Origin: a virus
DNA length: 25,947 nucleotides
UHGV virus genome: UHGV-0145877
Reading direction: 5' to 3' (one strand)
Part shown: piece by piece, positions 461 to 25,947 of the stretch
How the letters are laid out: every line of letters begins with the position of its first letter
Numbering within the stretch: position 1 is the stretch's first letter
Notes under the pieces: model-generated
The model's input: only the letters and a program-made list of their open reading frames with translations
Databases searched by the model: none
What the model was told of the DNA's origin: nothing
Position numbers and translations under genes: made by a program

Positions 461-1660
461 ATGGTCGTGAGCGTTTTTATGTTTGACTTGACGTTTATTA
501 TCTTTATTTTATCTTCCATCCCTGTATTTTTTGTTTTTTGGATTGCCGGAAGGTTTAAGAATGAATTAGTTGCAGACTCTTCTTTTGGATTGCGAGGTGA
601 TGACAATTTATCTTGCCTCAGGGGGTTGGCGGCTGTCATGGTCGCCCTTCACCATTCAGTATATATGTTCAATTATCTTTATCATGATAAATGGAGTATA
701 TTTTTGAATGATGGATTTGCGGCGAAGTCAAGCAACAATAGTTTATTGGCCATTGCATATTTTGGCTCCATTCCAGTCATGATATTCTTTATGATTACAG
801 GGTTTCTCTTCTTTAGAAAAATAATAAACAAACCAATAAACAATGCTGCAATATTTTTGTCGGCGCGAGTTAAGAGACTAATTCCAATGTATGCATTCAT
901 GGTGCTTTGCGTTGTTTGTGTTTCTGAATTAATTCGACCCAACGATAGCATTGGGATTCACAACATTATTGTTGAAGTTGGCCGATATTTTACGTTTGGT
1001 ATAATTGACCCTAATGGCCTTACACCTTCTATTCATGGATCTTTAATCGTTGGCGGGGTTATCTGGACTCTTGCATATGAGTGGGGTTTTTATATAATTT
1101 TACCATATATCTCTATGTTCGTAAAATCAATAAGAGATGCATGTTTTTCGGTAATAATTATGCTTTTCTCGGTATTAATTGCTTACCGCCAAGAGCTTAT
1201 CAGTGAAATGTTTGCCACTCTTCTCTTTTGCTTTATTGGTGGCTTTGTTGCAGCGCTAGCTTCTGGTTACCTAAAGAACAACGCTATCAAACAAGCCAAT
1301 AGCGTAATGATGACAATTGTGTACCTTTTATCGCTTATTGCTGTCGCATACTGGCAGGACTTTAACATTTACAATGTTTACATAGTGATTCCGCTATTTT
1401 TGTTTTTTTTAAGTGCGTGTACTGGCTCCAAAGCTTTTCAAATTATAAACACCAAGTTCTTCAAGGTGGCGGGTTCTGTAAGTTACAGCATTTATTTGAT
1501 GCATGGCTTAAGCATGGTAATGACCTTTAATTTCATTTCAAGCTCATTAAACTATACTGAGTTTGCAGCAATATCTTTATCAATTTGTGCAATGATAAGT
1601 TGCTTAACTTACTTATACATTGAAAAACCCGCAATGAAAAAACAGTTTAAAAACAATTAG
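461..1660 (+). CDS. Acyltransferase family 3 integral membrane protein (O-antigen or other surface polysaccharide acetyltransferase-like)
   Basis: 399-aa, highly hydrophobic, multi-helix ORF with an N-terminal motif LRGLAAVMVALHH typical of acyltransferase-3 enzymes. Strongly AT-rich relative to the phage structural genes and on the opposite strand. True start may be the ATG at 479 (MFDLT...). Confidence 0.7.
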   Translation: MVVSVFMFDLTFIIFILSSIPVFFVFWIAGRFKNELVADSSFGLRGDDNLSCLRGLAAVMVALHHSVYMFNYLYHDKWSIFLNDGFAAKSSNNSLLAIAYFGSIPVMIFFMITGFLFFRKIINKPINNAAIFLSARVKRLIPMYAFMVLCVVCVSELIRPNDSIGIHNIIVEVGRYFTFGIIDPNGLTPSIHGSLIVGGVIWTLAYEWGFYIILPYISMFVKSIRDACFSVIIMLFSVLIAYRQELISEMFATLLFCFIGGFVAALASGYLKNNAIKQANSVMMTIVYLLSLIAVAYWQDFNIYNVYIVIPLFLFFLSACTGSKAFQIINTKFFKVAGSVSYSIYLMHGLSMVMTFNFISSSLNYTEFAAISLSICAMISCLTYLYIEKPAMKKQFKNN

Positions 1661-22763: not shown

Positions 22764-23288
22764 ATGAATCCTGAAATTTTTGAATCAAAGTTCATAATGA
22801 ACGAAGCAACTTGGCAACGAATTGAAAGGTTAGTAAATACTGAAGATGATATTGGTTTGGTTTTAAGAGTACATCTGATTACAGAAGCAATGATTGAGGC
22901 ATTTTGTTGCGCCGCTGTAGGTAACCAAAATCTATTTGATGGATTTGGTGAAAACTTAACCATGACCTATGCCGCAAAAATTCAGCTAGCTGCCAACCTC
23001 GGCCTAAATGAACACTCCGTCGCAGAACTTAAACGCCTAAATAGAATAAGAAATGTTCGCTCTCATCAAATAGACAACCCGGAAATAACTGACGCAGAAA
23101 TTGAATCATTACGAACATTTATTAGCCGAGGTGGTCAGGAAGATCTCATTAACTCAGCAAGATTCGGCATAAAAGTTGGAGACATTGAGCTGAATCTTAA
23201 CCGTCCAGATGCCAATAATCGTGAAAAATTCATAGCTATTCTTGGCAGCATCATCCTAAGGCTCACTAAACAAGTTGCAGGACAATAG
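22764..23288 (+). CDS. HEPN-motif protein (putative Abi-like RNase), lysogen-expressed accessory gene
   Basis: 174-aa plus-strand ORF, antisense to the late operon. R-x4-H motif (RNVRSH, R96 to H101, nt 23049-23066) within a predicted helical protein. Clearly AT-rich. ATG at 22764 with TAAGGT 8 nt upstream. Confidence 0.6.
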   Translation: MNPEIFESKFIMNEATWQRIERLVNTEDDIGLVLRVHLITEAMIEAFCCAAVGNQNLFDGFGENLTMTYAAKIQLAANLGLNEHSVAELKRLNRIRNVRSHQIDNPEITDAEIESLRTFISRGGQEDLINSARFGIKVGDIELNLNRPDANNREKFIAILGSIILRLTKQVAGQ

Positions 23289-23869: not shown

Positions 23870-24358
23870 TTAATAGCCATCAGAAGTAATCGCTACAGAT
23901 TTCAATCCCTCAATGTCATCCTTGGACAGGGCGAACCATTCACCGTGCTTTCTCTTTGCGGCAAATTTGCGATGAAGCATGTTTTCAGTTTCTCTTCCAC
24001 CAGGGATCAGGCACTCAAGCTTCAAGCAGTCTGGTCCAGAGTTGCCAAGCGATTTGATGCGTTGTGGAATGTTGGATGAATACCCAATTTTGGTTAGCCC
24101 AGTTTTCTTCGATGACAAAACGTATACCTGAGGAGGTTCTTTTCTCTGGTCTTCCATTACACGTCTCATTGTTGCCATAAGTCCGCCGTGCATCAGCATT
24201 TCAACAAAGAACGCTGACCGAACACCTGACGACTTAAGCATGCCAGAAAATTCACTTGCCAATTCCATTAACTCTGCGATGTTTTCAGGAACTTTTTGGC
24301 AGTTATCTTCCTTGTATAAGGAAATCATTCTTTGAAGCTTTTCTTCTAATTGGTTCAT
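23870..24358 (-). CDS. T5orf172-like (GIY-YIG-like) domain protein
   Basis: C-terminal region VYVLSSKKTGLTKIGYSSNIPQRIKSL...HRKFAAKRKHGEWFALSKDDI resembles the T5orf172 domain. Probable start is the ATG at 24358 (AAGG Shine-Dalgarno); the ORF track extends to a GTG at 24514 with no Shine-Dalgarno. Confidence 0.5.
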   Translation of the reverse strand: MNQLEEKLQRMISLYKEDNCQKVPENIAELMELASEFSGMLKSSGVRSAFFVEMLMHGGLMATMRRVMEDQRKEPPQVYVLSSKKTGLTKIGYSSNIPQRIKSLGNSGPDCLKLECLIPGGRETENMLHRKFAAKRKHGEWFALSKDDIEGLKSVAITSDGY

Positions 24359-24699
24359 AGCGTCTTTACCTTTTAGAAAGTGAGCCTGTCTCACAGAAAA
24401 GCCGCCCGAGAGAGGTTGCCACCTATAACGGCATTTCTCAGGCTCACTTACTGAAAGGCTCTCGTTAATATGCGCGTGAGATGCGCGGTTTACTGCAGAT
24501 GTAAAAAGCCCCACAAATGCGAGGCTAAATCCTGGTATTTGTAATGACTGGCTCTTATCTCAACGCGGCCCCTTACCGCGCGCCAGATGCTCAATCTCAA
24601 GCATCAGCAATGAGATGTTTAATCTGGATTCACTCCAGAAGTGATCACCACCCTGTCTACAGAGCCAGATGTGAAGGATGATGAGTAAAATTATCGCTA

Positions 24700-25167
24700 T
24701 CATCGAAGGCATTGCGTCCTGATGTATTCCTGAAGCGTTCTCAGTGCTGTTTGGTCGCGGATAATTCCGTCCCGGACACCGAGAACGTTTCGTCCAGCAA
24801 CTGGAGAGAGTTCGACGGTGGCATCATTGCCCATGCCGGAGGCGCTGGAGGCTTCGGCTGAGGATGGCACAGGGCATTTTCCTTTGACGAACACCCGACC
24901 ACCATTATCAAGCTTGCGCCGAAGAGCATCATTTTCAGCTTTCGCATCAGCTAACTCCTTCGTGTATTTAGCATCGAGTGCATCAGCAGAACGCTGGCGC
25001 TGCTGCATGTCAGTAATGGTGGCGGTCGCCTGCTTCAGCTCACTGACTTTTTTATCGCGCTGCTCTTTGTAGGCGATGGCGTTATCACGGTAATGATTAA
25101 CAGCCCATGACAGGCAGACGATGATGCAGATAACCAGAGCGGAGATAATCGCGGTTACTCTGCTCAT
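24700..25167 (-). CDS. Rz: Rz-like inner-membrane spanin
   Basis: N-terminus [31 protein letters not shown] matches lambda Rz as I recall it. ATGA overlap with R. C-terminal half diverges from lambda. Confidence 0.85.
24741..24947 (-). CDS. Rz1: Rz1-like outer-membrane lipoprotein spanin, embedded in Rz in the +1 frame
   Basis: 68-aa ORF wholly inside Rz. Signal peptide with lipobox VVGC and a proline-rich stretch ([11 protein letters not shown]), as in lambda Rz1. Confidence 0.8.
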
Positions 25168-25640
25168 GCCTCAATCTCTCTGACCGTTCCGCCTACTTCT
25201 TTGAATTTTGCAATCAGGCTGTCAGCCTTATGCTCGAACTGACCATAACCAGCCCCCGGCAGTGAAGCCCAGATATTGCTGCAACGGTCGATTGCCTGAC
25301 GGATATCACCGCGATCAATCATCGGTAAAGCGCCACGCTCTTTAATCTGCTGCAGTGCAACAGCGTCCTGGCTTTTCGGAGAGAAGTCTTTCAGGCCAAG
25401 CTGCTTACGATAGGCATCCCACCAACGGGAAAGAAGCTGGTAACGTCCGGCTGCTGTTGATTTGAGTTTTGGGTTTAGCGTGACAAGTTTGCGAGGGTGA
25501 TCGGAGTAATCAGTGAATAGCTCTCCGCCAACAATGACGTCATAACCATGATTTCTGGTTTTCTGCCGTCCGTTATCAGTTCCCTCTGACCACGCCAGCA
25601 TATCGAGGAACGCCTTACGTTGATTATTGATTTCCACCAT
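25164..25640 (-). CDS. R: Endolysin (lambda R-type lytic transglycosylase)
   Basis: [39 protein letters not shown]... is near-identical to lambda R as I remember it. Confidence 0.9.
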
Positions 25641-25947
25641 CTTCTACTCCGGCTTTTTTAGCAGCGAAGCGTTTGATAAGCGAACCAATCGTGTCAGTAC
25701 CGATGTAGCCGATGAACACGCTCGTTATATAAGCGAGATTGCTACTTAGTCCGGCGAAGTCGAGAAGGTCACGAATGAACCAGGCGATAATGGCGCACAT
25801 CGTTGCGTCGATTACTGTTTTTGTAAACGCACCGCCATTATATCTGCCGCGAAGGTACGCCATTGCAAACGCAAGGATTGCCCCGATGCCTTGTTCCTTT
25901 GCCGCGAGAATGGCGGCTAACAGGTCATGTTTTTCTGGCATCTCCAT
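25624..25947 (-). CDS. S: Holin (lambda S-type, class I) with dual-start Met1/Met3
   Basis: [39 protein letters not shown]... is near-identical to lambda S107. The start codon occupies the last 3 nt of the window, so upstream context is not visible. Confidence 0.9.

Follow-up and report, generated by a model that had tools for sequence, protein, structure and literature searches.

A lambda S holin allele with an acidic residue between its two start codons in a damaged Escherichia coli prophage

The holin gene S of phage lambda yields two products, of which the longer, S107, equals the shorter, S105, preceded by Met-Lys and carries two extra positive charges, those of Lys2 and of the deformylated Met1 (PMC6116005; PMC9636201). 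This extra N-terminal charge bars TMD1 from the membrane and, together with heterodimerization with S105, makes S107 an inhibitor until depolarization (PMC6116005; PMC9636201). With S105 alone, lambda lyses at 54.3 min rather than at the 65.1 min of the wild type, progeny build up at about 7.7 per minute, and the fitness of this phage is known to depend on when it lyses (PMC3166277). The P22 gene 13-type and other lambda-family holins fall into the same Pfam family and share the dual-start layout, the codons between the starts encoding one or two basic residues (MKKM, MRM, and MRKM). Mutagenesis in the 1990s worked out what N-terminal charge does at this position of S, and Steiner and Blasi in 1993 and Graschopf and Blasi in 1999 reportedly found that the charge of the N-terminal residues decides whether the protein behaves as an inhibitor or as an effector. 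Here, we describe a natural allele of lambda S in which the residue between the two starts is acidic, unlike that of the lambda and P22 types.

The allele lies at the very end of the window, by which we mean the whole 25,947-nucleotide stretch of DNA that was analyzed (UHGV virus genome UHGV-0145877). An initial annotation of this DNA had pointed to a Met-Glu-Met motif in its last nine bases, and the minus strand there indeed reads ATG GAG ATG (plus strand, CATCTCCAT), the end of the window coinciding with the first start codon of the holin gene. The lysis genes are arranged as follows.

25939-25947, minus strand: dual-start motif ATG GAG ATG (Met1-Glu2-Met3), read from the sequence
25624-25947, minus strand: S holin gene of the lambda family (PF05106), 107 codons, from ORF translation and profile match
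25164-25640, minus strand: R endolysin, 158 amino acids, sharing 17 nt with the 3' end of S, as in lambda
24700-25167, minus strand: Rz spanin subunit, 155 amino acids (PF03245)
24741-24947, minus strand: Rz1-type ORF inside Rz in another frame, with a lipobox-like VVGC, by sequence inspection only

The holin heads an S-R-Rz/Rz1 cassette laid out as in lambda and belongs to the lambda-family class I holins, matching the PF05106 (Phage_holin_3_1) profile with 105.3 bits against a cut-off of 23.8 (E = 2.4e-30). Its near identity to lambda S, which the initial annotation had pointed out, was borne out by alignment with NC_001416 (45186-45509), in which 104 of the 107 residues are identical (97%), the only differences being K2E, S86T, and R105G; residues 3 to 85, a span that should include the three TMD regions, are all the same. 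The lambda N terminus is also as the initial annotation gave it, codons 1 to 3 being ATG AAG ATG in lambda, HK629, and E. coli OkiPb01711. A single A-to-G transition, the one that makes K2E, leads from the OkiPb01711 allele to that of the window, and the same change separates the window from the commonest E. coli allele. The other two differences occur beside Lys2 elsewhere, S86T in OkiPb01711 and R105G in both HK629 and OkiPb01711.

The likeness to lambda S thus takes in two starts one codon apart, the S/R overlap, the gene order, and, in the contigs described below, the sdi stem-loop within 87 nt of shared upstream sequence, whereas Glu2 replaces Lys2 and thereby removes the charge held responsible for antiholin function. 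That this charge makes S107 an antiholin, another point of the initial annotation, is what reviews of the system state (PMC6116005; PMC9636201). Since the gene has two in-frame starts one codon apart but has Glu in place of Lys or Arg between them, its long product is better not called an antiholin, and the gene is best named a lambda S allele whose dual-start motif is charge-reversed.

How unusual this residue is can be seen from the wider family. Among 120 cluster representatives reaching down to about 73% identity, from genera including Salmonella, Citrobacter, Klebsiella, Kosakonia, Dickeya, and Erwinia, the residues between the Met codons are K, R, KK, or RK with few exceptions, as the initial annotation had expected; Q and P are rare, and none of the 120 has an acidic residue there. 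MQM is found in P0120 (34 E. coli contigs) and P0102, MPM in P0107 from a Klebsiella plasmid, and MNM in two IMG/VR contigs, L129 (676, minus strand) and L130 (2874, plus strand). These variants resemble the window allele in having no basic residue between the starts but are neutral where it is acidic, and the P0120 and P0107 branches are only about 73 to 74% identical to the window holin. Invariance of Lys2 among close relatives is by itself weak evidence, the whole S protein being extremely conserved there; conservation of K or R in the more distant branches is the stronger argument. The near-universal presence of a basic residue at this position suggests that the charge of the side chain matters.

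A single base at the very edge of a window invites the suspicion of a sequencing or assembly error. However, an exact-sequence look-up placed the exact Met-Glu-Met protein in 49 blocks of a large assembly collection (24 contigs read), drawn from NCBI E. coli assemblies and from ENA and Logan metagenome assemblies, gut metagenomes included. Its accessions include EMR8291032.1 and HAH7070319.1, titled "phage holin, lambda family [Escherichia coli]," and the carrier assemblies are GCA_964042585.1, GCA_900707035.1, GCA_012859315.1, GCA_037465535.1, and GCA_048609855.1. Because the same protein and DNA recur in independent assemblies and metagenomes, the allele is genuine, and an error in the window is refuted, with a practically negligible chance of being the explanation. 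Many of the ENA contigs of about 3.5 kb among the protein matches resemble lambda contaminants.

The allele is, at the same time, rare. Alleles were counted with a 55-nt query carrying the variant base at its center, such that a 28-base megablast seed must span the variant. The GAG query had no match in 5,426 complete E. coli genomes, in which the AAG control query matched at 1,214 places and the whole gene at 1,239, and none among 50,697 phage records, in 148 of which the gene is present. In IMG/VR, at least 120 contigs have AAG at codon 2 and two have AAT (K2N); no codon 2 there begins with C, G, or T, or with A followed by a base other than A, so that Glu2 does not occur. No holin copy in the JGI metagenomes has a first base other than A at this codon. 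The initial annotation had named a common Glu2 among lambdoid holins as the observation that would speak against it, and these collections, with about 1,214 E. coli copies and 148 phage records besides IMG/VR and the JGI metagenomes, contain none. As one SNP, the change is statistically no different from an ordinary mutation.

A scan of species-representative genomes gave 35 matches, all AAG. These (L131-L165) place lambda S in assemblies labeled Pseudomonas, Veillonella, Cohnella, Flavobacterium, Segatella, and others, many of them on contigs of about 3.5 kb. In 26 copies, W56 is an amber codon, as in lambda cI857 Sam7. Most are almost certainly lambda control or spike-in DNA contaminating unrelated assemblies, and for this reason the scan says little about natural diversity.

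The initial annotation had considered the RNA structure upstream of the gene to be beyond examination, which is true of the window, as it stops at the start codon, but not of the carriers, which supply an intact sdi. We took the upstream DNA, which lies outside the window itself, from five carrier contigs that over the shared 5.3 kb are identical to the window in three cases and one base off in two. The 87 nt before Met1 are the same as in lambda, including the sdi stem-loop (AUCCCC-UUAUU-GGGGGU) with its 6-bp stem; identity to lambda reaches 171 nt upstream, the Q-end/pR' segment is 95% identical, and a strong terminator-like hairpin follows the promoter region. With either A or G at the variant position, the same sdi hairpin is predicted and the variant base is unpaired. 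The machinery that splits initiation between Met1 and Met3 thus appears intact, so that the long Met-Glu-Met product is probably still made. An explanation of the K2E effect through RNA structure was ruled out by the unchanged predicted fold.

The A-to-G transition also creates a GGAG Shine-Dalgarno-like site at 25942-25945 (minus strand), formed by the last base of codon 1 and the whole of codon 2, and this site could change start-site use. One might therefore suppose that translation outweighs charge, the GGAG beside Met3 shifting the partition of ribosomes between Met1 and Met3 or lowering total S synthesis. The new site pairs with the 3' end of 16S rRNA at -6.4 kcal/mol, where lambda has no anti-Shine-Dalgarno pairing at or below the -3 kcal/mol cut-off at the same AUG1/codon 2 spot. 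Nevertheless, it is weaker than the native GGGGGU (-9.7 kcal/mol) and leaves the predicted mRNA fold, including the sdi stem-loop, unchanged; since it adjoins Met3 without a spacer and comes after Met1, neither start can use it. A translation effect of this kind, which we rate as decidedly unlikely to be the main one, would in any case be compatible with a charge effect, and both could act together.

We instead favor an explanation in terms of charge. The computed side-chain charge of the N-terminal tail falls from 0 in lambda S107 to -2 in the long form of the window; that of S105 is -1. In this scenario, the transition turns codon 2 of a lambda S-type class I holin gene from Lys into Glu, and translation from both Met1 and Met3 would persist, given that both starts and the carriers' sdi stem-loop are present in a lambda-like, Q/pR'-type late region. 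As the tail of the long form is at least as negative as that of S105, it should translocate at least as readily, and TMD1 of the Glu2 product would then insert like TMD1 of S105. The long form would be a second holin and no longer an inhibitor, the built-in delay would be lost, and lysis would come at least as early as with an S105-only allele, with a smaller burst; at lambda rates, roughly a quarter to a third fewer progeny would be expected. The nearest comparison is the laboratory antiholin-less S, the S105-only allele M1L of lambda, for which the expected outcome is alike in that there is no functional antiholin and lysis is earlier. M1L makes no long product, however, whereas the window allele presumably makes one. 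Because that product would add to the pool of active holin, lysis could come earlier still than with S105 only.

A search for literature on K2E/S107, and for papers citing Steiner and Blasi 1993, returned nothing usable; the behavior expected of an acidic residue 2 would follow from review statements and general background on the system. The initial annotation had foreseen inhibition abolished or reversed. That K2E abolishes it may reasonably be inferred, whereas reversal is without support. Speaking against the explanation, the long product would, if deformylated, keep the +1 of its free amine, and some inhibition could thus remain. Taken further, this would make the phenotype nearly silent, the long form still acting as an antiholin, with TMD1 restrained by the amine charge or other features, or being too minor a product to matter. 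Lys2 is, after all, only one of the two extra positive charges of S107 (PMC6116005), and with the free amine counted, the K2E tail stands at -1 compared to 0 for S105. The net charge of the K2E tail is nonetheless no higher than that of S105 under either assumption about the amine, and a basic residue is nearly universal at this position across the family, which together leave a near-silent phenotype unlikely.

The setting of the allele bears on why it exists. Both a prophage of E. coli E2348/69 and phage vB_EcoM-611R5 are about 96.5% identical to the window, which covers the late half of a lambdoid prophage whose tail module is of the contractile kind. The window holds head genes (terminase, portal, MuF, scaffold, decoration protein, and major capsid) and tail genes (a DUF3383 sheath-type protein, tape measure, baseplate J, and a tail fiber with its assembly protein), followed by an acyltransferase. 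The last of these, of the Acyl_transf_3 family (461-1660, plus strand), adjoins the tail-fiber and fiber-assembly genes on the opposite strand and is likely a lysogenic-conversion gene for acetylation of surface polysaccharide. Two accessory genes (23870-24514, minus strand, and 22764-23288, plus strand) occupy the stretch from Rz to the small terminase, the place of bor in lambda. One encodes a protein of the T5orf172/MUG113 (GIY-YIG-type) kind, for which PADLOC gave a weak PDC-S57 match; the other, on the opposite strand, encodes a 174-amino-acid orphan in which an R-x4-H (HEPN-like) motif can be recognized. When scanned with PADLOC and with relaxed Pfam settings, the two genes gave this single weak match and no significant family for the orphan; both may be defense or moron cargo.

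One of the head genes is broken, and insertions interrupt the nin region of some Met-Glu-Met carriers.

15771-16712, minus strand: major capsid gene, cut short by an amber codon (relatives have 313 codons)
contig L003, 1-839 and 1737-2965: IS3-family insertions
contig L004, 1028-2175: IS3-family insertion
contig L182, 4692-5839 and 6737-7965: IS3-family insertions

In the capsid gene of the window, an in-frame TAG at 16100-16098 (minus strand) stands where vB_EcoM-611R5 and other carriers have CAG (Q205am). Because the same truncated 204-amino-acid product is found in 17 other contigs, this is no assembly error. A sister sub-lineage (L183, from GCA_048609855.1, and six similar places) has a different amber, W74am (TGG to TAG, the equivalent of window positions 16493-16491), and in two further carriers, L182 and L184, the gene is intact, as it is in the ERZ27277626-type haplotype. 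The carriers differ from the window by 1 to 3 bases over 10.3 kb, and only three SNPs separate the haplotypes over this distance, two of which are the capsid nonsense mutations; the chance that, of three random substitutions, two would fall in a single gene as nonsense changes is about 3e-4, a rough, post hoc figure. The IS3-family insertions carry a transposase (HTH_Tnp_1 and rve), and carriers L005 and L183 are free of them.

On these comparisons, the Met-Glu-Met allele is confined to one nearly clonal prophage lineage with a single origin, and the two capsid ambers and the IS insertions indicate that this lineage is losing phage function. As every member has K2E, including those with an intact capsid gene, K2E preceded the ambers. 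The inferred ancestor is capsid-intact (as are L182 and L184), so the prophage that acquired or tolerated K2E was not obviously dead when it did so. The complete E. coli genomes contain no near-identical Lys2 prophage that could serve as a sister lineage for dating K2E, the best matches being 96.5% identical in the late region and about 97.5% in the lysis region.

The intact capsid gene and complete-looking late genes of this inferred ancestor would also fit an adaptive retiming, in which selection favored losing the antiholin because lysing earlier benefits the phage, for example at high host density, or the host. Lysis time is known to affect the fitness of lambda (PMC3166277), and variants with an uncharged residue 2 do persist (MQM in 34 E. 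coli contigs, MPM in Klebsiella, and MNM in two IMG/VR contigs). Yet the allele has a single origin with no spread past one near-clonal lineage, it is in neither the isolated phage genomes searched nor IMG/VR, and the nonsense mutations and IS insertions that came later point to vertical inheritance, not to active phage life. In the window copy, lysis timing can hardly affect phage fitness, since no capsid is made in a nonsuppressing host, and because of the capsid amber K2E fits decay better than a retuned clock. We therefore give adaptive retiming a small chance of being right. Loss of the antiholin during decay is the reading we prefer: K2E would have arisen once, in an otherwise damaged E. 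coli prophage lineage, most likely as a nonadaptive loss of regulation under relaxed selection. We consider this whole explanation, from K2E through antiholin loss and earlier lysis to decay of the lineage, moderately probable.

Very improbable, in our estimation, is a third course, in which the lineage is moving toward a domesticated lysis-and-tail module. An antiholin-less fast holin would have come first and the two capsid knock-outs afterward, with the tail, baseplate, and fiber genes still open, under selection for a headless, tailocin-like release. An early lysis clock would be costless in such a scenario because there is no DNA packaging to await.

Much of this is already known: the protein is public under a generic name, and the principle that charge decides antiholin function is long established. 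No new question is opened, the role of charge having been known since the 1990s and the allele residing in a defective prophage. We add little beyond an acidic residue 2 in a natural allele, the rarity of that allele, and its occurrence in a decaying prophage, and the double knock-out of the capsid gene is a more curious observation than K2E itself. Should Glu2 act as we infer, both products of this natural lambda S allele would be holins. The charge model of antiholin function would then have a natural control at hand, and the allele would illustrate how the lysis timing of a prophage degrades once phage life stops.
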